This document shows, one piece after another, positions 2,072 through 18,187 of a stretch of DNA of 20,000 nucleotides. The notes beneath the pieces are model-generated. The model searched no databases. It had not been told where the DNA came from and saw only the letters and a list, made by a program, of their open reading frames with translations. The DNA comes from an uncultured virus (IMG/VR IMGVR_UViG_3300026116_000006) (taxonomy: Duplodnaviria > Heunggongvirae > Uroviricota > Caudoviricetes): the IMG/VR virus record IMGVR_UViG_3300026116_000006, one strand, 5' to 3'. Within the stretch, counting starts at the first letter, position 1, and the number at the start of each line of letters is the position of its first letter. The translations under genes were made by a program, and so were the position numbers.

Positions 2072-2093
2072 GAACGGGCGGATTTAGCTCAGA

Positions 2094-2291
2094 TCACTTC
2101 GTTCTTGTCAACTTTGTGAGTTTCAGCGTTGCGCGCAGGAGCTTCAAAACGCGCGGCGGGGCGCCGTTTTTCTCCCACCGCCAGACCGTGACCCGGTCGA
2201 CGTCGAGCGATTGCTGAACCGCTCGACGCCATCCGGTGGCACCGTAAAGCTCGATTGCGAGCTGCCGGAACTCGTTCCGGCCTAATGCCAT
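2094..2291 (-). CDS. Small helix-turn-helix DNA-binding protein (65 aa, Cro/XRE-like)
   Basis: ATG at 2291, one base after the rsr stop, with GGAGG RBS inside the rsr 3' end. LYGATGWRRAVQQSLDVDRVTVWRWEKNG matches an HTH pattern. Confidence 0.75.
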   Translation of the reverse strand: MALGRNEFRQLAIELYGATGWRRAVQQSLDVDRVTVWRWEKNGAPPRVLKLLRATLKLTKLTRTK

Positions 2292-2292
2292 G

Positions 2293-3705
2293 TTAGCGGG
2301 CCTCCACCTCACGCAGGTAAGTGAAAATCCCCTCGGAGAAACCGTCGATATGGATCCACTGCTCACCGTAACCAACGCCGTTCTGCGCCGATGCAACGTT
2401 GATCATATAGGCTGAGCCGTGGAACTTCGACGGCATCGCGCCAAGATGCGCCTGCTCATCCGTGATCACCACCAAGCGGTCATAGCGATACTGCTTGTTG
2501 GCCTTCGCAAGCGCCTGGGCGAGATAGGTTCCACCATGGCTCTGCGAACCGATGATCGCCTCGACCCCCGCCATCCCGCGCCGAGGCGGCACCTCGACGA
2601 TGCTGTTGGAGAACGAGCAGATCGTGACGTCGCCGGGGAACACTGCCGCCAGCGTGGCCGCCGCGTCCATGCGGGTCATGTCGGACTTACCCGAGAGCTT
2701 CTCCTTCATCGACCCAGACACATCGACCAGGATCAACGTATGCCCACGAAACTCGGGCATCTCGTCAATCGACGCCAGCAATGCCTTGTCGAGATGACGC
2801 TCGAAAGTCGGTGCTGCACGCGCCGCCGCGATGTAGCGGAACGGCAGCACCCACTGCGCCCCCTTGCGCGCCTGGATCGCCGCAATCACGAGATCACGAT
2901 CGACCCCCGCCTCATGCATGTTGCGCAGGTTGCGCAGCAGCGCAAGGTAGCCGAGCTTCTCCTCCTCGAGGAGCCGCGTAAACGTCGCCTTCTTATCCTT
3001 CCCGGCCGACAGGTTCGTCTCCCAGGTATCCGGGATCTCCAGGCCCGGCTCACCCTTGAGGCGCAACGAACGGATCGAGAAGCCGCTCTTCAGCTTCTTC
3101 GGGAAGAACGTCTTGTTCACCAGCTTGGCGAACATGACCGCCTGCTCGCGATCCTCCGGCTTGGTATGGCTGAGGAAGATCACGTCGCGCAGCTTGACCG
3201 GCGTGTCGCGATTGTACTTCGCGAGCTGATAGGCATCGAAGCGCTTGATCGCGGCATTGAGGCCAAGCTTCAGCTGCTTGGACAGCATCCGACGACCGTC
3301 GCTCTTCGGATTGAACTTCCAGTACATCGCCACCAGCTCGCTGATCTCGTCGGCGCGCCGCACGACCTGAGCGATCGTGTTGGAGGCGAGATTGCTGAAG
3401 CCCTGACCACGGGCGCGCTTGATCAACGTCACCAGCAGAAGCAACGGCACATGGCGCAGCTTGAACTGCACGCGCGCCTGGATGGCCATCGCCGCGAGGT
3501 CGCGCGGATCGACCTTCTCGGCCAGACGCTGGATACGCTTGGCGATCTCCTCGCCGTCCTCATAGAACTCATCCTCCCACAGGAGGCAGCTCATGACGGA
3601 GCGCTTCAGCTGATCCTTGAAATTGATGGCGACAGCGTGCGCACCCTCATGCGTGCGCAGGTTCGAACGGGCGGCCCAGCCACCCGACACATTGAGCCGA
3701 GACAT
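2293..3705 (-). CDS. rsr: Ro60/Rsr ortholog (TROVE plus vWA domain, 470 aa), Y RNA-binding protein
   Basis: ATG at 3705 with GAGGAG RBS (3713-3718). TROVE motifs THEG, LWEDEFYEDG, KLRHVP, RADE, YQLAKY, DTWE, ALLRNLRNM, LPFRY. vWA MIDAS motif DVSGSM, then GGT and ITDEQ. Confidence 0.95.
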   Translation of the reverse strand: MSRLNVSGGWAARSNLRTHEGAHAVAINFKDQLKRSVMSCLLWEDEFYEDGEEIAKRIQRLAEKVDPRDLAAMAIQARVQFKLRHVPLLLLVTLIKRARGQGFSNLASNTIAQVVRRADEISELVAMYWKFNPKSDGRRMLSKQLKLGLNAAIKRFDAYQLAKYNRDTPVKLRDVIFLSHTKPEDREQAVMFAKLVNKTFFPKKLKSGFSIRSLRLKGEPGLEIPDTWETNLSAGKDKKATFTRLLEEEKLGYLALLRNLRNMHEAGVDRDLVIAAIQARKGAQWVLPFRYIAAARAAPTFERHLDKALLASIDEMPEFRGHTLILVDVSGSMKEKLSGKSDMTRMDAAATLAAVFPGDVTICSFSNSIVEVPPRRGMAGVEAIIGSQSHGGTYLAQALAKANKQYRYDRLVVITDEQAHLGAMPSKFHGSAYMINVASAQNGVGYGEQWIHIDGFSEGIFTYLREVEAR

Positions 3706-3732
3706 GGTCTTTCTCCTCGTGACAACGACGAA

Positions 3733-3861
3733 ATCGGGCAACAGGGTGAAACGGCAACGTAGGCGCTCTATCCGCTGAGCTACGGATCTCACGACCCGGA
3801 GGGATTCGAACCCCCGACCTCCCGCTTACAAGGCGAAGTAACCGTCGCTAACAGCACCGAC
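3733..3861 (-). ncRNA. Y RNA 1 (YrlA-like): permuted tRNA module in the order anticodon arm, T arm, closed acceptor hairpin, D arm
   Basis: Shared scaffold GGUGCUGU..CGGUUACUUCG ... CCG..UGUUGCCC. Inside: UUCGC-CUUGUAA-GCGGG, AGGUC, GGGGG-UUCGAAU-CCCUC, CGGGUC-GUGA-GAUCCG, UA, GCUC-AGCGGAUA-GAGC. Directly upstream of rsr. Confidence 0.88.
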
Positions 3862-3890
3862 ATTACGCAACGCGAACGCAAGACATCGAT

Positions 3891-4024
3891 ATGGGCAACA
3901 GACGAAACCGGTATGAAGGTTGGACTCGAACCAACGACCTCCGGGCTATCGACCCGGCGCTCTACCGCTGAGCTACTCGCCCTGTAGTGTGGTGAGCGAA
4001 GTAACCGATCTCTGACAGCACCAT
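3891..4024 (-). ncRNA. Y RNA 2: tRNA module in the order 3' acceptor strand + ACCA, linker, 5' acceptor strand, D arm, anticodon arm, T arm
   Basis: Same scaffold. Inside: UUCGCUC-ACCA-CACUACA-GGGCGAG, UA, GCUC-AGCGGUA-GAGC, G, CCGGG-UCGAUAG-CCCGG, AGGUC, GUUGG-UUCGAGU-CCAAC. Confidence 0.85.
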
Positions 4025-4035
4025 CTTTACCTCAC

Positions 4036-4120
4036 GCCTGGGCAACAAGCGCTTGCGGTTTGGACCGAAGTCCATCGTTCAACCAATGTACGAAGTAACC
4101 GCTTGCAAACAGCACCAAGC
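4036..4120 (-). ncRNA. Y RNA 3: minimal form without a tRNA module
   Basis: Same scaffold (GGUGCUGU..GCGGUUACUUCG ... ACCGC..UGUUGCCC), terminal stem GCUUGG/CCAGGC, and two small hairpins including UGGAC-UUCG-GUCCA. Confidence 0.78.
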
Positions 4121-4126
4121 CCGGCG

Positions 4127-4158
4127 CTTGTAGAAGGCTCTGTTGCAATTTGCAACAG
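4127..4158 (-). promoter_or_regulatory. Putative sigma70-type promoter with overlapping palindromic operator
   Basis: -35 TTGCAA (4155-4150), 17 bp spacer, -10-like TACAAG (4132-4127). The implied start near 4120 coincides with the 5' end of Y RNA 3. Perfect inverted repeat CTGTTGCAA-N-TTGCAACAG at 4140-4158. Confidence 0.55.
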
Positions 4159-4166
4159 CCGATTTC

Positions 4167-4198
4167 AAAGAAAATGCGGCGCCTGACAGCGCCGCATT
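4167..4198 (-). terminator. Intrinsic terminator downstream of the 4235-4906 gene
   Basis: 10-bp stem AAUGCGGCGC/GCGCCGCAUU with 6-nt loop, followed by UUCUUU. Confidence 0.75.
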
Positions 4199-6028: not shown

Positions 6029-6505
6029 TCACCAGATCGTATCAGGAGCTGGTATTGCCATGTGAATGCTCTTCTCGTTGACCATGCGGCAGAGCACACC
6101 ATTCACCTTGAGTGCCCAACCGTCCGAAGCGCGCACCGCTATCCATTGGCCCGGTTCAAGTTTTGCGCCGCGCGATTCATGCTCGTCATTGACCATCGGC
6201 CCGACCTTGATGATCAGTCCGACCTTGCCCTGGTACTCGTCTTCGCCCGTGGTGTTGTCGGTGAGATGGATGCCGCCCTTCGTCACCTTCGGCCGCTCGT
6301 AGATCGCGTAAAGCACGTAGGTGTTGAAGACATGGATCTTCCCGATGTCGCCCAGCTTCTCGAGCAGCAGCTCGGCCGGATCCTGGTCGTGCTGCATCCG
6401 CATACCCATGGGCTTGCGCGTGCCTGCGCGCTTGAGATTGCCCTGCAGATGCGTGCCGGTCTTCGGGAAGGGTGTCACGTTAGCGGCGGCGGTTTTTCTC
6501 GGCAT
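6029..6505 (-). CDS. GroES/Cpn10-like co-chaperonin
   Basis: ERPKVTKGGIHL mobile-loop-like motif, GLIIKVGP, LEPGQWI, LKVNGVLCRMVNEKSI. ATG at 6505 has a GAGGAG RBS; a later start at MGMRMQH is possible. Confidence 0.8.
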   Translation of the reverse strand: MPRKTAAANVTPFPKTGTHLQGNLKRAGTRKPMGMRMQHDQDPAELLLEKLGDIGKIHVFNTYVLYAIYERPKVTKGGIHLTDNTTGEDEYQGKVGLIIKVGPMVNDEHESRGAKLEPGQWIAVRASDGWALKVNGVLCRMVNEKSIHMAIPAPDTIW

Positions 6506-6719
6506 CTTCTCCTCGTCCTGCCGTTTGAAGTTCAGAGACGCTCTCGTCGAGTGCCTCGAGTGCATCCTGCAGCCCCTTGATGATGCCGCAGTGGTATTTG
6601 TACGCAGCGAAGTCGGGCATCATGCCGTCAGAGACGGAGACGCCTTTCTCATTGATGAGCTTCCTGACCTTGCGCTTGAAATGATCCTCGAGCGCTTCGT
6701 TGAAGGTGATTGCGGCCAT
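6480..6719 (-). CDS. Small conserved phage protein (79 aa)
   Basis: Helical protein with DFAAYKYHCGIIKGL motif, a type commonly found just before the phage GroES-like gene. Confidence 0.7.
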   Translation of the reverse strand: MAAITFNEALEDHFKRKVRKLINEKGVSVSDGMMPDFAAYKYHCGIIKGLQDALEALDESVSELQTAGRGEDAEKNRRR

Positions 6720-6808: not shown

Positions 6809-7756
6809 TCAAGTCCTCTGGTGCTCGCCATAACGGCGCGCCTTCTCGAGACGCCCGAGGCCGGATCCCGCGCCAGCATGCATCTTGACCATGCCCCCGC
6901 GCTTACGGCCCGGCAGGCCGGGTGGCGGCATCGGTGGCTTGCCGCCAGCCATGCTGGGCGGCGGCATGGGTGGACCGCCTGGACCACCCGGAGGTCCGCC
7001 CATCCCAGGGGGTGGGCCTGGAGGCGGCCCAGGAGGCGGACCAGGGGGAGGGGTGGGTGGTCGTGTGATAGCGCTGGGCGGCGGCATGGGAGGCATGGCG
7101 CCCGGCTGGTTGCCGACATTGATGTTGATCGTGGTCGATCCCTTTTTCTTCGCCCGGCCGCCTTCGGCACGGTGAGCGCGACCGCCTCGAGCTTTGTCGT
7201 CGGGGTTTTTCGACATCTCGCGCCAATCGAAATCCTGGCGCCCGCTGCTCTTGGAGACCGTCCCGCCGCCTTCGCGCGCGATGCGACCGCCGGTCGGGCG
7301 CGTGCCCTCGACATAGCCATCGCCTGACTTGTTGCCGGTGCGCGCGTGGCCGCCGCGGGCGCGCTTCTCGCGGCAATCACCGACCATCTTGTGGATCAGC
7401 TTGCGGTCCTCGGCTTCGTCAGCATGTTTGGCGCGACCGCCCTTGTTCAGGAACGAGCTGTGCTGGACCGGGCCTTCGTTGAAGCGCGCGGAGGGCACGC
7501 CGCCATCGACGTAGCCGCCACGGGCTTTCTTGTCCCGTCGCATCGGGCCGCGATCGCCCTGGATCCGACCGCCAGCCTTGTAGATCATCGGCCGCACGCC
7601 CTTCAGGGTTTGCGGATTGTAGACCTTCTTGCCGGCATTGAGAGATTCGGGAGGGGACCAGTCGCTCGCATCGACGTGCTGATGCGGATCGGCGGTCGTG
7701 AGACGCTTGGCTTTGGCGCGCATGTCGCTGCGCGCCTTCTTCGACATTTCACTCAT
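6809..7756 (-). CDS. Low-complexity protein with repeated xxxGG motifs and a Pro/Gly-rich tract (315 aa), possible internal virion protein
   Basis: ATGA overlap with the upstream gene. YKAGGR, KARGGY, YVDGGV, LNKGGR, RARGGH, KARGGR, RAEGGR, RKRGGM; PPGPPPG repeats; C-terminal AGAGSGLGRLEK. Confidence 0.75.
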   Translation of the reverse strand: MSEMSKKARSDMRAKAKRLTTADPHQHVDASDWSPPESLNAGKKVYNPQTLKGVRPMIYKAGGRIQGDRGPMRRDKKARGGYVDGGVPSARFNEGPVQHSSFLNKGGRAKHADEAEDRKLIHKMVGDCREKRARGGHARTGNKSGDGYVEGTRPTGGRIAREGGGTVSKSSGRQDFDWREMSKNPDDKARGGRAHRAEGGRAKKKGSTTININVGNQPGAMPPMPPPSAITRPPTPPPGPPPGPPPGPPPGMGGPPGGPGGPPMPPPSMAGGKPPMPPPGLPGRKRGGMVKMHAGAGSGLGRLEKARRYGEHQRT

Positions 7757-10700
7757 CTCGTCGCCCCCGCGGCAATCTCGAGTGCTATCTGCAGGGCCGA
7801 CTTACCAGTTTTTGCCGGTTCAGGATAGGGGGCGACGACGCGTCCCCCATCCTGGCGTGCTACTCGCGGCCCGAAGTCCGATGCGGTCGGTGGCCGTGCG
7901 GTGAGGTTTCGGCCTCCTCGCGCGCGTCCTTGTGCTGGCTTTGCTTTCGCAAGCCATGCTTCGAGGTCTTTCTCAAGTTGTGCTCGAGCGCGATCGAGGT
8001 GGGCTCGGGGATTTCGTCCGAGTGCTTGCTCCAGCCGGTCGAGATAACCTTTCCCATGGGGATCCTTGCTCCAATCGTTGCGCGCCTTGGTGATCTCTGC
8101 TTCGTGACCCAGCAGCCGGATATCATACGGCAGCTGCTGGGCAACACGATGCAAAGGCCCGCCTTCAGCAATAGCCGATTGTAAACTTTGGTGTGTCTTT
8201 ACGCCACCCTTATCGACCAGCGCCCGGATGCCGCGCTCGCCGGCCGCGGTGGTGATCGGCTGATAGCCCTGGATCAGGCCGCTGGGGTCGGCGGCCATCA
8301 CTTTTTCCCAGAGATCCTGTAGTTTTTGCGGGTCCTCGAGGTGCTTCGACCCGTGCTCGATGAAGTCGACCGCGAAGCCCTTGGGGTTGGCTGTCACAGG
8401 TTTGGCACGATGATGCCAGACCTCGGTCTGGTTCAGGAGATAGCCCAAGGCATTGGCGGCGATATCGGCGCCCTTGTGGGTCGCCAGTGTCTGGCCGACC
8501 GCCGCCGGGTTCTGATCACGCTGCCACGCGCCCGTGCCATGCACCAGTTTTTGCAACGGGATGCCGGCGAGGTTGCGCGCATGCTCCATCGCCCGTTCGG
8601 TGAGGTGGCGCGTCAGGCCAACCTTGTCCTCGGGCGACAACGCCGCAAAATGTTGGCCGTACTTCTTCGCCCAGGGCGACCCTTCGCCCGGCGCGACCTC
8701 GAACGACAACCGACGCAGATTGCGCTCGAGCCCGCTTTCGCTGTCCTCCTCGGCATTGCGCGTGAGCTTGGTCATGCCCATCCAGCCCACGGCCTGGGCC
8801 TCGGCGGGGGTCCAGTCCTTGCGCCCCATCCAGCCCACTTCGTTCAGATGCTTGGTGAGCGCGCGTCCCCAGTCGGCCCGGTTTTCGTAGGCGGTGGCCG
8901 TTGGTGTGCCTTGCATATCGACCTTGAGCTTCTTGAGGGCTCGCTTGTCGTATCCAAGCCGCTCGAGGTGGTTGAGCAATTCTTTGTCGACCATGCCGGT
9001 ATCGCGGGCGGTGTGGACATCGACCACGAAGGGGTCGCCACCTTCCGGGTGATTGCCCATCCATGATCGAACACGCTTTCCTTCAGCCGCGTCCACGAAG
9101 TCGCCAATTTTCTGACCCACGCCTGCAGTGATCGGTTGATCTTGAAGAACGGCACGCGCGGCCTCCGTCGGGTTGGGCATGCCGCCAGCTTTCCAGAGCC
9201 GCTTCGGCATACCGCGATTGATCTGTTCTTGCTGCATCAACACGTTGTGCATCGCGCCGCCCGGCGAGATGTTCTGCTGCGCTACCAGCCACGCATTACG
9301 ATGCCGACGCGCGAGATCAGGATTGTCGGGGTAGTATTGATTGAACTGGTGGGCGACATCCTTGTACCAGCGCGCCGCCTTGTGGATCTCGTCGGGCGAC
9401 AGGATGCGCTCATGGCGTTGCTTCCAATCTTCAAAGTTGATGTCGCCGGTCGCGAAGTCAGGCAGGTGGTTGCTGCCGGGCGGCGCCTTGATGATCGTGC
9501 GTGGATTGCCAGGGTTACCGACAACCTTGTTCTTGGCCACACGCATCTGGCGCAGGCGCATCCGATTGGCCGCGTCGGCGTCAGGAAACTTCAGGCCGCC
9601 GAGATCGGTCGACTGCGGCATCCCCGTCTGGTCGACCTCGTGCCCGATCTCATCGCCCGGTGGGATCTCACCACCGCTGGCATATTTCGCACCTTTGCTG
9701 ATCAGCTGATGGGCGCGTGCGTGCATGTCGGGCGTCCAGGTCGACGGATGGACATGCGACAGCACATGCATGTGGCGCTGCTCTTCACGCGTCAGTTTCG
9801 CGACGCCGCCTTCACCGTACGCGCCGGGCTCGTCGACCGCGCCACCATCGGCATAGACCTCACCCCCTTCGCTGTAGGCCGGCAGGCCCTTCAGAATCGA
9901 CTCGCGCATCTTGGGCGTGATCTCGAGCTTATGGACTTTCGGTCCAGAAACCACGTGAGACTTGATCCGGTAGAGGTCATCGCGCTTGCGCTTCCAGTTC
10001 GCCGCGTTGCGCTCAGCCCATTTCAAGGCTTCAGCATGCGTCTCGAAAGGATTGCTCACAGGCTGGTTATCCTCGACATCATGCACGACGTATCGCTTCT
10101 GCGTGCCCAGATCGTGCCCGAACAGATGCACCTTGGCCTCGGGGTCATGCTTCTTCGCCAGCTTCTCGAGCGCGGCTGGCACGATCTTGTCGTAGAAACC
10201 CTTCATCCCTTCGCCACCGACATTGAGGTCGAGACCGCTATACTCGCGCTGGAAAGGGCCGTGGCCGGTATTGGTGTGCTGACCGTGATGCTCGCGGATC
10301 TTCTGCGCCATCTCCTTGCCGACGGCGTCCTCGAGCTTGTCGTGGAAGACGAGATGGGGTGAGTGCCAATCGCCGCCGTGTTCTTTCATCGCGATGTCGT
10401 AGGCCTTGTCACCAGGACGATCGCGCACGTCGAGCGCCTCGAGGCGCTTGGCAAGACTGTACCGCTTCGCCTGTTCCTCGCCGGGTGTGATCAGCAGGTT
10501 CTTATGACCGCCCTTCGCGGCTTCCATCAATGCATGCTTGAGACCGAGATCGACCCACTTCGATGTGTTATCGACGTAAGGACCATGCGGTGTTGTTGGA
10601 CCCCATGTACGAGCAAACTCTTGCGCTAGCTCAGGCGTCGTGAAGCTGATCGACCGTCGTCCACTCGGTGTTTCCGCGTAAAAACCTCCGTCATCTTCCA

Positions 10701-11469
10701 CAATCTTAGGCCCGCCAAAACCGTGCTTTCGCCCTTCTTGCGCCCAGTCGCTTTGCAACTCCTCGAGATGCAGGTCTTTGCCGAGCTTCATCGCCCCAGG
10801 ATCGCGGTGCGTGCGATCGGACATGCGTAGATGCAGGATGGGGTTGTTGACGTCGTCCCAGTGGCTCGATCGGTAAGGTGCTTCGGTATTGCTTTCAGCC
10901 GCATTGCGTCGCTGTGCTTCGTCACGCATGCGTCCATACATACCGTGGAGAACTTCCTGTCCCGTGTGTCGATCAACCAATGGAACGTACGGCCCTTGTT
11001 GCGGTACGTGATATCGCTTGACCATTTTTGGCGAGGGTAGGTGCAGCACCTGCTCGCGATAGTTCTTGCCGCCGGGGATCGTGTAGTCGGCATATTTCGG
11101 TCCACCCGATCCACCCTCGTCGGGATCATAATCGTAGGTATCGTCGCTGAACTCGTGCGTGCCGAGCTTGGGGAGGTTCTGATGGAAATGTTTCCTCAAT
11201 TCCTGACGCGTGACGCTGGGCCGGCTGCCGAAGGTTTCGTCGAATTTAGCCTGTTTGATTTCATCGGGCTTGACGCCGCCCTTCAGCAGCATGGCCTTAA
11301 ACTGAGCTGGCGTGCCCTTCTCCTGCTTGACGCCGCGCAGCGCCTCTGCGGCGGGCGAATAGAGGCCAAGGTCGGTCAGCTCGCGACGGTTCGGGTCAGG
11401 CTCCTTGATGTAGGAGGGCGACTGGAGGTTCTGCGACAGCCGCATGGCATCTTCGACGGGATCAGCCAT
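7753..11469 (-). CDS. Large multidomain (polyvalent-type) phage protein, about 1238 aa, with a putative HhH-GPD-like domain
   Basis: Long ORF coupled to the portal stop (ATG 11469; GTG 11487 is an alternative). N-terminal domain has PGGKNYRE, SHW, HLRMSDR, EELQSDW, GMKGFYD. Central domain has WY..SP..GVGQK..VVDVH..QAVGW. Confidence 0.8.
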   Translation of the reverse strand: MADPVEDAMRLSQNLQSPSYIKEPDPNRRELTDLGLYSPAAEALRGVKQEKGTPAQFKAMLLKGGVKPDEIKQAKFDETFGSRPSVTRQELRKHFHQNLPKLGTHEFSDDTYDYDPDEGGSGGPKYADYTIPGGKNYREQVLHLPSPKMVKRYHVPQQGPYVPLVDRHTGQEVLHGMYGRMRDEAQRRNAAESNTEAPYRSSHWDDVNNPILHLRMSDRTHRDPGAMKLGKDLHLEELQSDWAQEGRKHGFGGPKIVEDDGGFYAETPSGRRSISFTTPELAQEFARTWGPTTPHGPYVDNTSKWVDLGLKHALMEAAKGGHKNLLITPGEEQAKRYSLAKRLEALDVRDRPGDKAYDIAMKEHGGDWHSPHLVFHDKLEDAVGKEMAQKIREHHGQHTNTGHGPFQREYSGLDLNVGGEGMKGFYDKIVPAALEKLAKKHDPEAKVHLFGHDLGTQKRYVVHDVEDNQPVSNPFETHAEALKWAERNAANWKRKRDDLYRIKSHVVSGPKVHKLEITPKMRESILKGLPAYSEGGEVYADGGAVDEPGAYGEGGVAKLTREEQRHMHVLSHVHPSTWTPDMHARAHQLISKGAKYASGGEIPPGDEIGHEVDQTGMPQSTDLGGLKFPDADAANRMRLRQMRVAKNKVVGNPGNPRTIIKAPPGSNHLPDFATGDINFEDWKQRHERILSPDEIHKAARWYKDVAHQFNQYYPDNPDLARRHRNAWLVAQQNISPGGAMHNVLMQQEQINRGMPKRLWKAGGMPNPTEAARAVLQDQPITAGVGQKIGDFVDAAEGKRVRSWMGNHPEGGDPFVVDVHTARDTGMVDKELLNHLERLGYDKRALKKLKVDMQGTPTATAYENRADWGRALTKHLNEVGWMGRKDWTPAEAQAVGWMGMTKLTRNAEEDSESGLERNLRRLSFEVAPGEGSPWAKKYGQHFAALSPEDKVGLTRHLTERAMEHARNLAGIPLQKLVHGTGAWQRDQNPAAVGQTLATHKGADIAANALGYLLNQTEVWHHRAKPVTANPKGFAVDFIEHGSKHLEDPQKLQDLWEKVMAADPSGLIQGYQPITTAAGERGIRALVDKGGVKTHQSLQSAIAEGGPLHRVAQQLPYDIRLLGHEAEITKARNDWSKDPHGKGYLDRLEQALGRNPRAHLDRARAQLEKDLEAWLAKAKPAQGRARGGRNLTARPPTASDFGPRVARQDGGRVVAPYPEPAKTGKSALQIALEIAAGATR

Positions 11470-13822
11470 TGGGGAGATCCGCGGCACCCAGGCCTCGCTT
11501 CATTTTCTCCTCCTTCTCTTGGCGCTGCACGTCGGCCAGGGCCGGCGTGATCAGGGGCGCCACGAGATGCGCGCTCTCGGGATGCACGGCGAGGTTTTGC
11601 GCGGCATCGATCAAGTTCATCTTCTCGGCCGTGATGCCCTTGGCGATCTCGTTGTCGACCTTCCGGCTCTCGAGTGCGGCATCCATCTTGGTCTTCACGA
11701 TCTTGACCTTGTTGTCGACATCGCTGTTCTGCTGCTCGAGGTTGAGCTTGGCCTGACCCAGGCCCTGGTCGAGCTGGGCCTTTGACATCGCCGCCTGAGC
11801 CTTCATCTTGTTGGCATCGACAGCCCCCTGCTTGATCTTCAGCTCCTCCATCGCCTGCATCATCTCGGGCGTCGGCTGGTTTGCCTGATCGTCAGGCTTC
11901 ATAAACTCCTGCGGGTTGCCCCAGCCCAAGGTGCGGAGAGCCAGCTCATGCAGAGCCTTCATGTCGTAGAGCTGCGGCGCGCCCTGCGCCAGGAGGAACA
12001 GCGCGCCCACCTTCGCAATCCGCTGGACCTGCGAAGCCGTGTTCGGGTCCGCCTGGGGTACAAGGTAGAAATTCTCGAGCGCGTCTGTGAAGGTCTTCTG
12101 GTCCCAGGGGAGAGCGGGCCGTTTGTTGGTCTCCCAGAAGCTCTCGGGGTGCTCGCGGAAGACCTGGGCCAGGAGCTGAAACTCGCGCGCTTGGCTGGCG
12201 TGCAGCCGCTTATGGACGCTGTTCAGGATCTTCTGCGCCTGCTCGATCAGGGCCAGCGTGGTCCCGACCGGGGCATTCTGCTTGCCCTCACCTACCTGCT
12301 GCTCGGCTGTCATGCCGACGCGCTGGGTTGTCTCGACGATATTTTTCGCCAGCTCCATCAGCGCCGGCAGGCCCTCGGTTTTGTAGGGCAGCGGCATGAC
12401 GGCATCGCGCATCGGCATGCCCGCCGTGTCGATCTCGGCGCCGCCGCCCGGCGGGATCCTGAAGATGTTGGTGTTCTGTCGGCCGCCGCCCTTGGCGTAG
12501 AGGAAACCGGGGAAGCTCGCGAACATGCCGGCGTCGAGCATCTCGCGCCACGCCGCAGTCACGGCGATCGTGGCATTGGCCAGGATGTGCAGCAGGCCGA
12601 TGCCATAGAAGCCCATGCCGGGCACGAAGGTGTACTCGATGAAGACGTCCCGTCGCTGTGGGAGCTTGCCTGCCGCCGGCTTGCTGTAGTTGCGCCGGAT
12701 CGACAGCATCTTCTTCGAGCTGACATCGATCGTCACGACATAGGGCACCGGCAGGCCTGACTCCTTGCCCTTCCAGCGGTGCTCGAGGCCTTTGACGTCG
12801 ATGTCGGTGTAGCATTCGTAGATCTCGCGATCGCGGTCCTGCGCACGCGTGGTCTGGGTGTCGATGCCCTCGACATCGCGCTTCTTGCGCCGGATTGCAT
12901 TCTCGACTGGCTCCTGCGGATCGCCGAGATCGACATCGTCGTAGATGCCGAGGATCTGCATGCGTCGCACGGTCGACTGTGTCAGCATCGATCGGTGCGT
13001 GATGCGCTTGGCGTCATCGAGCGTGATCGCGGCATTGTTCACGATCAGATCATCGGCATCGACCGATAGGGAGCACGGCCGGTTCAGCAGCGGATCGTAG
13101 TAGACTTTCTTGAAGGTCGTCCCGCCGAAGCCCAGGAACAGCAGCATGCGGTCGGTGTCGGCATAGTAGTTCTTGTCGGTGACGGTGAGGAAATGATTGA
13201 AGTCTTTCTCGAGCGCATGCGCCAGCTCATCCTCAGCTTTGGGCGTGTTGTTGTTGTCGTCTCGGATCTTGACCGGCCCATCAGTCGGCAGCAGTTCGCT
13301 GCGTGCGTTGGCCTGGAACCGCAGCACGGCTTCAAGAAGCAGTGGATGCCGGATGGTCGACTGGCTCTGAACGGAAAGGCCGTCGGGCGAGCCCCCAACG
13401 TCGTCTGGGTTCTCCAGTGTCAGCCCGAGCAGGTCGATGCCTGTCTCGCGAGTAGTAATCCAGTCCTGGCGGGATGCCAGATCATCCTGAACGCCGCGCA
13501 GGATGTCGTCGACAATTCGGTTCTTCTCGATGTCTTCGATTTTGTCGACAAGGTTGGTGAACCAGCCATGCGGGCTGTCGTCTTCGGCCGAACGCAGGGG
13601 TCGGTCATCGGTCGAGATCGTGATCGACCCATCCGAGTGCTCGATGCTCACCACATTGCCGCGCTCGTCGAGGATTTCGTTATCGTCCGAGGCGTTCAGC
13701 GGGACGTCGTCTTCATCGTCGTCGATCTGGCTGTTGATCCGCTCGACAAAACGCTGGGCGCTGGGTGAGATCTTGAGGCGGACGCCGGCAGGCTTGAGAC
13801 CATAAGCGGAGGAGGCAGCCAT
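11462..13822 (-). CDS. Portal protein (786 aa)
   Basis: Follows terL. HPLLLEAVLRFQA...ELLP..GPVK, GTTFKKVYYD, GFYGIGLLH, PVGTTLALIEQ and a C-terminal coiled coil. TGATG overlap at the start. Confidence 0.9.
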   Translation of the reverse strand: MAASSAYGLKPAGVRLKISPSAQRFVERINSQIDDDEDDVPLNASDDNEILDERGNVVSIEHSDGSITISTDDRPLRSAEDDSPHGWFTNLVDKIEDIEKNRIVDDILRGVQDDLASRQDWITTRETGIDLLGLTLENPDDVGGSPDGLSVQSQSTIRHPLLLEAVLRFQANARSELLPTDGPVKIRDDNNNTPKAEDELAHALEKDFNHFLTVTDKNYYADTDRMLLFLGFGGTTFKKVYYDPLLNRPCSLSVDADDLIVNNAAITLDDAKRITHRSMLTQSTVRRMQILGIYDDVDLGDPQEPVENAIRRKKRDVEGIDTQTTRAQDRDREIYECYTDIDVKGLEHRWKGKESGLPVPYVVTIDVSSKKMLSIRRNYSKPAAGKLPQRRDVFIEYTFVPGMGFYGIGLLHILANATIAVTAAWREMLDAGMFASFPGFLYAKGGGRQNTNIFRIPPGGGAEIDTAGMPMRDAVMPLPYKTEGLPALMELAKNIVETTQRVGMTAEQQVGEGKQNAPVGTTLALIEQAQKILNSVHKRLHASQAREFQLLAQVFREHPESFWETNKRPALPWDQKTFTDALENFYLVPQADPNTASQVQRIAKVGALFLLAQGAPQLYDMKALHELALRTLGWGNPQEFMKPDDQANQPTPEMMQAMEELKIKQGAVDANKMKAQAAMSKAQLDQGLGQAKLNLEQQNSDVDNKVKIVKTKMDAALESRKVDNEIAKGITAEKMNLIDAAQNLAVHPESAHLVAPLITPALADVQRQEKEEKMKRGLGAADLPNG

Positions 13823-15824: not shown

Positions 15825-15856
15825 CGGCCGCCCCCGCGGTTGATCGGGCGGACCAT

Positions 15857-15886
15857 AAAAAGAGCCGGTCGCTTGCGCAACCGGCC
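15857..15886 (-). terminator. Intrinsic terminator just upstream of terL
   Basis: GGCCGGUUGC-GCAA-GCGACCGGCU (GNRA loop) followed by CUUUUU. Confidence 0.75.
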
Positions 15887-16051
15887 TGAAGGATGGGGAG
15901 ATACCCTCGTCGCTGAATGCACACAGCGAAGAGAACGCGGTCAGTGTAGCCGACTGCGGTTCGGAGCGCTATGCCGCAATCGACCACTGTACCCGCGTAG
16001 AGCCTTGAGTCTTACTAGCGGAGCGTCCCTAGTAAAGCTTCACGCGAGCCG

Positions 16052-16876: not shown

Positions 16877-17129
16877 GACCGGTTTCCTCCAATGACAGCA
16901 CCCGCTTCTCGAGCTTGCCGAAACGGATCAACCACATCCTGCTAATCGCGTTGTTGTCGTTCTCGAGGTCAAGCACCTCGAGCGTCGAGAAGCGGAACAT
17001 GCATTTCTCGCACTGCCGACGTCGCTTCTTGCCCTTGTCCTTGTTGAAGCGTGAATCGATGACCCGCGAGATGATATGCCCGCAGCTGGGGCAGGGCACG
17101 GCGCCCGCGGTGTCACCGGGCTCGATCAC
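16737..17129 (-). CDS. NrdR-like zinc-ribbon protein without ATP-cone
   Basis: CPSCG..SRVIDSR..KKRRRQCEKCMFRFSTLE matches the NrdR N-terminal zinc ribbon. GTGA overlap with the upstream gene. Confidence 0.75.
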   Translation of the reverse strand: MIEPGDTAGAVPCPSCGHIISRVIDSRFNKDKGKKRRRQCEKCMFRFSTLEVLDLENDNNAISRMWLIRFGKLEKRVLSLEETGRGGQQEYFAKARALGEAGMGPGSPVAERAPDDGRGDAVRREDLEGR

Positions 17130-18187
17130 TTCCAGGGCGTCCCGCCCGGCGCATTGATCGCCATCGCCGGCTGGCTGCCGGAGCCGTAGGGCGTGACCCA
17201 GGCGTTGCTATTCTGGATCTTGTTCATGCTGCCGCCCGAGTTCAGCACGTACTGCGAGACCTTGCCGCCGGGCGCCTTGGTCTGTCCATCGCTCGACATG
17301 TTGCAGCCGCTGAGATTGCTGCCGAAGCTCGAGCCTGGGATGTTGATCAGGCTGAGCCCCGTGTTCTCGCCGTTCACGCCCATCACGGTGCGAATACCCG
17401 TATTGGCGAAGATGCCACCGAAGGCGTTGTTGATGAAGCTGCCGCCGAACATGTCGACCGAGTTGGCCTGATCGGGCAGGTTCAGCCCATAGCCTCGATT
17501 GCGGCTGAGATTGGTGCCGTACATCATCAAATTCGAGATGACGCCGTTGCTGCCGCCATTGGTCGGCACGTCGGAGATCACCATGCCGTCGCCGTAGTTG
17601 TTCTCCGAGATCATGTTGTAGAGCGCCGCCTCGAACACATCGCCGCAAAAGCGAATGCCCTCGAGCCCGCAATACTGGACGCTGAGATTGTCGAAGATGC
17701 CCTTGTAGATCGGCCGCCCGCCGCCCGGCGCATTGATTACGATGCCACGCCCGCATTGCTGGCCGATGTAGCCATTGCCGAACACGTAGAGGTTCTTCAG
17801 CACGAAGCCGCGGATCGGCGAGCCCGCGGGCGCCTTCGAGGTGTCGAAGGTGATCACGTCCTTGGTAGTGTTGAGGCCGCCGTTCCAGCTGAGGTTGAGG
17901 TTGCTGAAATCGCAACCGAACGGCGCGCCGCCGGTGTAGGCCACCGGGATCACGATCGGCGCGGTCACGGTGAAAGCCGGTGTCGACGGGTCGATGATCA
18001 AATAACCGCCGCCCGTGCAGACCTTGGTCAGCTGGGTGACCAGATCCTGCAGCGAGGTCGGCTTGTAGAGCCCGCCGCCGCTGGGCGGCGTCGGTGGGAT
18101 GGGCGGCGTGGGGCCAGCGGGGTAGACCTGGGCGCCGTTCACGTTGACGCTCGCCACCGTGCCCGTGATATCGACCGTGTCTGTCAT
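17126..18187 (-). CDS. Right-handed parallel beta-helix (pectin lyase-like) protein (353 aa)
   Basis: Asn/Gly-rich repeats (NLYVFGNG, GRGIVI, NLSVQYCGLEGIRF, ENNYGDGMVI, SRNRGYGLNL, NNAFGGIF) after a Pro-rich linker. Confidence 0.7.
   Translation of the reverse strand: MTDTVDITGTVASVNVNGAQVYPAGPTPPIPPTPPSGGGLYKPTSLQDLVTQLTKVCTGGGYLIIDPSTPAFTVTAPIVIPVAYTGGAPFGCDFSNLNLSWNGGLNTTKDVITFDTSKAPAGSPIRGFVLKNLYVFGNGYIGQQCGRGIVINAPGGGRPIYKGIFDNLSVQYCGLEGIRFCGDVFEAALYNMISENNYGDGMVISDVPTNGGSNGVISNLMMYGTNLSRNRGYGLNLPDQANSVDMFGGSFINNAFGGIFANTGIRTVMGVNGENTGLSLINIPGSSFGSNLSGCNMSSDGQTKAPGGKVSQYVLNSGGSMNKIQNSNAWVTPYGSGSQPAMAINAPGGTPWK

Follow-up and report, generated by a model that had tools for sequence, protein, structure and literature searches.

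The stretch analyzed here, called the window, is the 20,000-nucleotide end of the genome of an uncultured Caudoviricetes virus (IMG/VR record IMGVR_UViG_3300026116_000006). This phage originates from the root zone, and its genome of 68,628 bases has direct terminal repeats and is rated complete. Between genes 4906-4235 and 2016-1363 of the window lies a Y RNA/Ro60 cassette, with every part on the minus strand. Three tandem RNAs, RNA1 to RNA3, at about 4122-4036, 4025-3889 and 3862-3732, precede an rsr-like gene for Ro60 of 470 amino acids (aa) at 3705-2293, which is followed by a helix-turn-helix (HTH) gene of 65 aa at 2291-2094 whose ATG lies one base past the rsr stop codon. A first-pass annotation of the sequence had described such a cassette between two head genes. 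The three RNAs with their common scaffold, the intact TROVE/vWA gene and the coupled HTH gene were all confirmed. The location within the head region also stood. The window's minus strand carries terminase, portal, GroES-like and major capsid genes. The two flanking genes could not be assigned to any named family.

The Ro60 gene and the insertion

A profile search, proposed in the first-pass annotation, matched the rsr product to Pfam TROVE (PF05731, 48.6 bits with a cut-off of 23) and VWA_2 (PF13519, 34.1 bits) as well as to phrog_850, revealing the full-length TROVE (HEAT ring) plus vWA architecture of Ro60. Foldseek retrieved Ro60 folds (9KOP, E 4.6e-20; 2NVO, 1e-11; 1YVR also matched). The metal ion-dependent adhesion site DxSxS...T...D is present, with D328, S330, S332, T393 and D416 invariant across 16 sequences. 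The protein is 58% identical to gp139 of phage CcrColossus, and the Ro60 of phage phiLo matched it with an E value of 4.7e-25. As the NCBIfam Rsr equivalog NF041674 scored only 17.4 bits, far below its cut-off of 900, the window Ro60 is placed in another subfamily of shorter proteins, to which CcrColossus gp139 also belongs. Ro60 homologs were found in 96 phage records.

The downstream gene matched 547 viral loci, and gene order was compared in the best 80 of these; one was the window's own, leaving 79 relatives. The upstream gene lies 132 to 735 nt from the downstream gene in 72 of them, six were too short to tell and one had no match. Neither rsr nor the HTH gene was present at the site in any of the 79. 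The flanking genes thus adjoin without the cassette, in line with the synteny check that had been suggested, and on this comparison the cassette is an insertion. The empty site of the relatives holds a similar terminator-like hairpin with a T run, plus a promoter-like site, both recognized by eye, which indicates that the cassette sits between native signals.

Searching the whole 68.6-kb genome extended the previously noted absence of RtcB from the window to the entire phage, which hence lacks the ligase of rtc RNA-repair operons. No RNA ligase was found among 44 further open reading frames scanned against PHROGs. Within the flank covered, genes for RtcB or Pnkp/Hen1 adjoin rsr at 26 of the 78 bacterial loci, at 8 of the 52 from metagenomes and at one of the 91 viral loci. 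Operons of Caulobacterales read Y RNAs, rsr, HTH and then rtcB, or Hen1 and Pnkp (loci L257, L261, L264 and L277; L274), often with two or three copies of the operator described below. The nearest bacterial Ro60s are mostly from Caulobacteraceae and other Alphaproteobacteria, the likely host group.

Three RNAs on one scaffold

Scaffold RNAs were surveyed at 265 rsr loci, drawn from named phages and from collections of viruses, genomes and metagenomes, with at most 80 loci per scan; the window's own contig and some others entered twice. The scaffold pattern matched 503 times upstream of rsr and 16 times on the opposite strand. Parsing gave 492 calls, 450 of them unique, with nine mis-ended and some RNAs missed, including RNA3 of the window and the published CcrColossus YrlA. 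Another 70 matches, from a scan with an over-long gap, were discarded as nearly all due to chance. Covariation supports the shared stem, as anticipated: the four outer pairs are Watson-Crick in 368, 372, 338 and 312 of 441 RNAs, compared with shuffled maxima of 187, 183, 174 and 156 (shuffled mean for the first pair, 162), the 3′ end having been chosen by sequence alone and the kinship of the loci left uncorrected. The window has a C-G pair in place of the usual G-C, as in 18 of 450 scaffold RNAs. All three RNAs lie on the same strand within 420 nt upstream of rsr (bacterial Y RNAs being encoded within 4 kb of Ro60), and folds and covariation agree on a long stem in which the two RNA ends pair and which contains a bulged helix. 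They are thus Y-type RNAs with a common handle and different inserts. By class, 223 of the 450 have no tRNA arm, 152 have a T arm before a D arm, 61 a T arm only, 4 a D arm only and 1 a D arm before a T arm. The Rfam search that had been recommended identified RNA2 as a tRNA (48.4 bits) and RNA3 as YrlA at 37.2 bits, below the gathering score of 69; neither RNA1 nor RNA2 matched YrlA.

RNA2 (4025-3889, minus strand) contains a complete tRNA cloverleaf, interrupted by the Ro stalk between nt 67 and 68. The 3′ strand of the acceptor comes first (3998-3994), followed by A73 (3993), CCA (3992-3990), a 7-nt linker and G1-G7 (3982-3976). The D arm (3973-3959), the anticodon loop (3952-3946, with GAU and C33), the T arm (3935-3919) and nt 66-67 (3918-3917) complete the module. 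Its minimum-energy fold displays all four arms in normal order, the first hairpin being a 7-bp acceptor stem closed by a loop made of ACCA and the linker. RNA2 bears GAU, A37, A73, C4:G69 and U12:A23, which we take to be isoleucine identity elements, but its anticodon loop is non-canonical, with C33 and G38.

The RNA2 layout recurs at eight other viral loci, the second case (L011) coming from a relaxed search. A pattern with the CCA built in gave eight viral matches, seven of this layout, and omitting the CCA added at least two copies. In one further scan the window itself was the sole match among the matches listed. Seven of the nine RNA2-type copies lie near a Ro60 homolog of 27 to 100% identity, one locus being only 516 nt long. 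Pair 7:66 is Watson-Crick in 8/9 and 6:67 is paired in 9/9, with compensating changes, and this covariation places the graft between nt 67 and 68; a graft at 65/66, considered earlier, was replaced. The anticodon loop is a canonical 7-nt loop in one copy of nine, and NCCA is present in four of the six other copies found by searches that did not require CCA. The layout was not found at 80 bacterial rsr loci, and its pattern matched 0/5 and 0/401 genomes in a sample of one bacterial class.

ARAGORN with default settings found no tRNA in the phage genome and called RNA2 only as a pseudogene. It called RNA2-type genes within phage tRNA clusters (L537, L540 and L543, near 2440-2605) tRNA-Thr, tRNA-Phe and tRNA-His. 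In practice, RNA2-type genes are therefore mis-called as ordinary tRNAs. Measured against a working tRNA, with a continuous cloverleaf, U33, a 7-bp acceptor and a free CCA, RNA2 departs by its C33 and RNA3 by its sealed 6-bp acceptor.

RNA3 (3862-3732, minus strand) has the YrlA order: anticodon arm, V, T, acceptor sealed by GUGA, and D. Its match to YrlA (RF02553) spans model positions 24-84. The succession of T arm, closed acceptor and D arm is found in RNA3 only, as RNA2 has the reverse order and RNA1 neither arm. The anticodon loop (3832-3826) is of the Thr type, with UGU. Loop and stem positions were tallied over the 49 relatives that have tRNA spacing and form the three inner pairs of the anticodon stem. 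U33 is present in 49/49, a purine at 37 in 47/49 and a pyrimidine at 32 in 44/49, with 23 different triplets. Pair 28:42 is Watson-Crick in 48/49 (shuffled mean 21.7, maximum 31), as is 27:43, which varies little (shuffled mean 42.3). The partners in both pairs are the two bases that follow the D arm, which places the insertion point of the Ro stalk within the stem, between nt 28 and 29. A graft at 26/27 had been assumed and was replaced. Read in this way, the hairpin named V by Chen et al. is the anticodon arm in the RNA3 lineage. A stem with U33 and purine 37 occurs in RNA3 and in 47 of 152 relatives of its class, about a third. RNA3 thus does not share the lack of an anticodon loop described for the YrlA of Salmonella. 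Acceptors of the class are for the most part sealed, with a GNRA- or UNCG-type loop in 74/152, and CCA is in place in 19/152.

RNA1 (4122-4036, minus strand) consists of the Y scaffold and two small hairpins, one capped by UUCG (fold z -1.74). It has no tRNA module and belongs to the largest class, that without T or D arms. Its first loop (4085-4077) resembles UGG-N1-2-(U/A)GA, a motif found in 22 of the 223 arm-less RNAs (shuffled mean 3.5) that is perhaps a D-loop remnant. Arrays of such RNAs are present in cultured phages, with seven in CcrColossus (L172, 720-1912), one of which is annotated as tRNA-Gln, and four in Xanthomonas phage Olaya (L173, 1324-1933).

In three RNA libraries, contigs (3170-4109, 3515-4147 and 3525-3842) extend over the RNA genes and into the beginning of rsr, and a DNA contig spans 2761-5240. 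Strand, ends and level are not readable from these library contigs, which could stem from DNA and also cover late genes; all come from 2025 rhizosphere studies, maybe from one campaign. They document a near-identical strain, not discrete RNAs. This second strain has three differences in RNA3, and at one of them (3847) an A-U pair replaces a mismatch in a stem.

The coupled HTH gene, its operator and the surrounding genes

The HTH gene encodes a probable Cro/XRE-like protein modeled with four helices (pLDDT 86) and is translationally coupled to rsr. Its top fold matches were all HTH proteins, none reaching an E value of 0.001; the best was a weak match to Aca7 (probability 0.87, E 0.9). An HTH homolog directly follows rsr in 97 of 247 loci, the window's contig being counted twice. 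A palindrome at 4140-4158, with the core GTTGC-N5-GCAAC at 4142-4156, is the sole exact copy in the 68.6-kb genome. It overlaps the -35 box of a putative sigma-70 promoter on the minus strand (-35, 4155-4150; 17-nt spacer; -10, 4132-4127), a weak candidate recognized by eye and from its position in relatives. After exclusion of the window and removal of duplicates, GTTGC-N5-GCAAC lay upstream at 45 of the 76 rsr loci that have the HTH gene, in all three collections, compared with 0 of 116 loci without HTH. Of the promoter/operator proposed at first, the putative operator is supported by its association with the HTH gene; the promoter was below the threshold of a scan of the window.

Recognition helices starting with Arg go with GTTGC-N5-GCAAC in 48/49 (one mismatch allowed, window included), those starting with Gly, Ala or Thr with AGTGC-N5-GCACT in 6/10 (4/116 among HTH-free loci), and those starting with Val with CGCGC-N5-GCGCG in 2/2; 15 were not parsed and one had Tyr. 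Across these sequences, the operator type changes with the recognition helix. The HTH protein is a probable autorepressor of the cassette.

On either side of the cassette, a hairpin with a U run at 4198-4167 (minus strand), seen by eye and not called by a terminator scan, resembles an intrinsic terminator. The first-pass annotation had included it in the cassette; the hairpin is there, but it is native to the upstream gene and lies outside the insert. A putative native promoter of the capsid operon (2081-2111, minus strand; TTGACA at 2111-2106) overlaps the end of the HTH gene. As a weak hint of this promoter, a DNA contig continues to 2150, whereas those from three RNA libraries stop at 2052-2058. 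The capsid-operon leader (2070-2020, minus strand) forms two hairpins with the motif CYCGGYGYG, which among 47 distinct relatives occurs twice in 28, once in 14 and three times in 1, and is absent from 4. An Rfam search gave no match for these hairpins, possibly a translational operator or another cis-acting RNA. Elsewhere on the minus strand of the window are a GroES-like co-chaperonin gene within the head module (6029-6565), a weak match to the alphaproteobacterial small RNA suhB/mmgR upstream of terminase (15848-15941; 25.2 bits, gathering score 41), a gene (7753-11487) whose 1244-aa product gave just a weak match in PHROGs, and one for a 353-aa glycine-rich, beta-helix-like protein without a match in family searches (17126-18187).

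Possible roles and comparison with known systems

Our best guess, to which we assign a probability of about 0.45, is that the cassette is an autorepressed fragment of an RNA-repair operon whose Ro60-stabilized RNAs act as tRNA bait or competitors, above all against tRNA-attacking defense enzymes. We rank it ahead of PNPase tethering, repair in trans, a neutral passenger and hidden tRNA genes. Sequence comparison directly shows the RNA anatomy, the graft points, the insertion and the operator link, on which this reading draws together with the rarity of ligase genes beside viral rsr; processing, binding and the bait role are inferred. In this view, the 68.6-kb phage would have captured, between its native terminator and native capsid promoter, the front half of an alphaproteobacterial operon (Y RNAs, rsr and HTH, often then rtcB or Pnkp/Hen1). 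A single transcript would arise from the promoter whose -35 box lies beneath the operator, and the HTH protein, binding there, would limit expression in an Aca-like manner, as co-occurrence and covariation suggest. By homology, the transcript would be cut into three RNAs, each docking on Ro60 via the same bulged stem. RNA3 would show the tRNA elbow and a normal anticodon arm and conceal its acceptor. RNA2 would show the elbow and a 7-bp acceptor with ACCA, potentially opened by RNase P and 3′ trimming of the host; its anticodon loop appears defective, and neither RNA would be able to decode. There are precedents for parts of this scheme: YrlA was proposed as a competitive inhibitor of anticodon nuclease (Hughes 2020, PMC7790460), and in Mycobacterium smegmatis, RNase P cleaves a YrlA that has a 7-bp acceptor and CCA is added to it (PMC4201824). 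tRNA-Thr(UGU), of the anticodon type seen in RNA3, is a main target of PARIS AriB and P2-OLD (10.1101/2025.02.04.636281; PMC12445682). Should the phage RNAs act as bait, the cassette would represent an RNA-based counter-defense against tRNA-cutting immunity.

A more specific proposal, which we regard as rather doubtful, is a two-sided decoy set on Ro60. RNA2 would be a host-matured, two-piece, CCA-ended mimic, possibly chargeable, directed against acceptor-end enzymes, while RNA3 would compete for Toprim-type nucleases such as OLD and PARIS AriB. AriB cuts tRNA-Thr(UGU) at 40/41, and P2-OLD acts on CNG at 28-30 and 40-42, cutting after the first C (10.1101/2025.02.04.636281; PMC12445682). RNA3 has the UGU, A37 and paired CNG of OLD substrates, and its Thr(UGU) arm would be pre-interrupted at 28/29, the P2-OLD 5′ cut site. 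Phages would swap the anticodon triplets to match host defenses. Anticodons of AriB targets (GUU 9, UUU 2 and UGU 2 of 49) are mostly related GUU copies, and this enrichment was not counted as support.

Several observations weigh against the bait reading. The minimum-energy fold of RNA3 is not the cloverleaf (-44.5 versus -34.0 to -36.9 kcal/mol; z 0.40). The anticodon-arm type is as frequent among genome RNAs (19/60) as among viral ones (20/59), and its presence in bacterial chromosomes argues that it is not a phage invention against defense. Paired CNG occurs in only 18/49 relatives of RNA3, whose triplets are widely spread, which makes the likeness to OLD substrates a lead. The window RNAs, with GCUGUNAG or GCUGUUUG, lack the strict 5′ motif GNCGAAN0-1G, which is present in 43/450 relatives; the published CcrColossus YrlA departs from it as well. 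Many loci are close kin, so the counts overstate independence. Finally, the phiLo data point to PNPase (PMC12135203).

That last point belongs to the best placed of the alternatives, which we nonetheless consider unlikely. In this RYPER-type scheme, the RNAs would hold host PNPase, or some other RNase, on Ro60 or gate its activity there, redirecting RNA decay or draining PNPase, and the tRNA shape would serve stability only. PNPase tethering was demonstrated in Deinococcus, and phiLo Ro60 binds host PNPase in vitro (PMC12135203); a stability role for the tRNA-like part has been offered (PMC4201824), and the arm-less RNA1 type is the largest class (223/450). It does not account for one class keeping U33 and purine 37 around a variable triplet, nor for the other keeping NCCA. 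Less likely again, the complexes may aid or switch on host RtcB or Pnkp/Hen1, thereby rescuing tRNA or rRNA cut during infection. Such a cofactor role has been proposed (10.1101/312249) and would fit the nearest bacterial operons, where these enzymes are encoded directly behind HTH; however, phages have rarely taken the ligase (1/91 viral loci within the flank covered), and at 52 of the 78 bacterial loci no ligase lies close to rsr.

We find it improbable that the cassette is a neutral passenger, a recently acquired, self-repressed fragment of no use to the phage. It was in none of the 79 relatives examined and its HTH would hold it quiet, but every part is intact, Ro60 homologs recur in the 96 phage records, and the second strain retains the cassette with one of its three RNA3 differences restoring an A-U stem pair. 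Hidden tRNA genes, with the stalk excised and the ends ligated as in algal and archaeal permuted tRNAs to yield working tRNA-Ile and tRNA-Thr, would account for the four arms, the 7-bp acceptor, ACCA and GAU of RNA2 and the ARAGORN calls of several RNA2-type copies, and YrlA-to-tRNA processing has been raised (10.1101/312249), but C33 and a canonical loop in 1/9 of the RNA2 class, the tetraloop-sealed 6-bp acceptor of RNA3 with CCA in place in 19/152 of its class, and the lack of a phage ligase make this very improbable.

The system itself is of a known kind, and the Y RNA/Ro60 layout is common (265 loci). Ro60 with Y RNAs was described in 22 phages (Chen 2014, PMC4201824) and again in phiLo (PMC12135203), in agreement with the first-pass annotation. 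YrlA genes likewise directly precede Ro60 and share its strand; the RNAs carry a YUAY motif (RF02553; PMC4201824; 10.1101/312249) and, as in RNA3, have the T arm ahead of the D arm with a closed acceptor. The published CcrColossus YrlA (Table S2) has the same scaffold with a CUGUUAA loop. The 5′ motif differs (GCUGUNAG in the window RNA, GNCGAA in YrlA). In those papers the hairpin before T is a V arm and the anticodon loop is absent, whereas RNA3 has a full anticodon arm completed by the tail of the D arm. The RNA2 layout, with normal order, an acceptor over NCCA and a graft at 67/68, was not met in the available text of PMC4201824 and 10.1101/312249. Yrn1 of Deinococcus radiodurans resembles RNA2 in that its D arm precedes its T arm and an anticodon-like arm separates the two. 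It differs in its 6-nt loop, its incomplete D arm and its metazoan-like Ro site, and it lacks both a V arm and an acceptor hairpin with CCA (PMC4201824).

Thermus phage phiLo (PMC12135203; PDB 9KOP, 9L5Y) has the same Ro60 fold, Yrl1 and Yrl2 upstream and no phage nuclease; its Ro60 is only 27% identical to that of the window, and the available text describes neither a tRNA module nor an HTH. Salmonella rsr-yrlBA-rtcBA similarly ties Y RNAs and Rsr to RNA repair (PMC7790460), and alphaproteobacterial relatives of the window cassette carry rtcB as this operon does. It depends on the sigma-54 activator RtcR, whereas the phage copy has a small coupled HTH, a sigma-70-type operator and no ligase. 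In permuted tRNA genes and two-piece transfer-messenger RNA (tmRNA), too, a linker joins the acceptor ends until processing opens them, and the Caulobacter tmRNA is a two-piece form without religation (PMC3978253). The phage RNAs differ in that the breaks lie inside a stem and bear the Ro60 handle, with no tag reading frame and no sign of religation.

Neither graft layout nor the HTH was found described in the literature searched, beyond whose reach were Sim and Wolin 2018/2020 and Burroughs and Aravind 2016. Within that literature, three features that the first-pass annotation did not mention are new: the two graft points in complete cloverleaves, the ACCA that RNA2 encodes, and the pairing of HTH and operator. 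The HTH and operator would add a regulator to alphaproteobacterial Ro60/RtcB operons, and the two layouts split tRNA mimicry into anticodon-end and acceptor-end forms carried by one handle in one small cassette.

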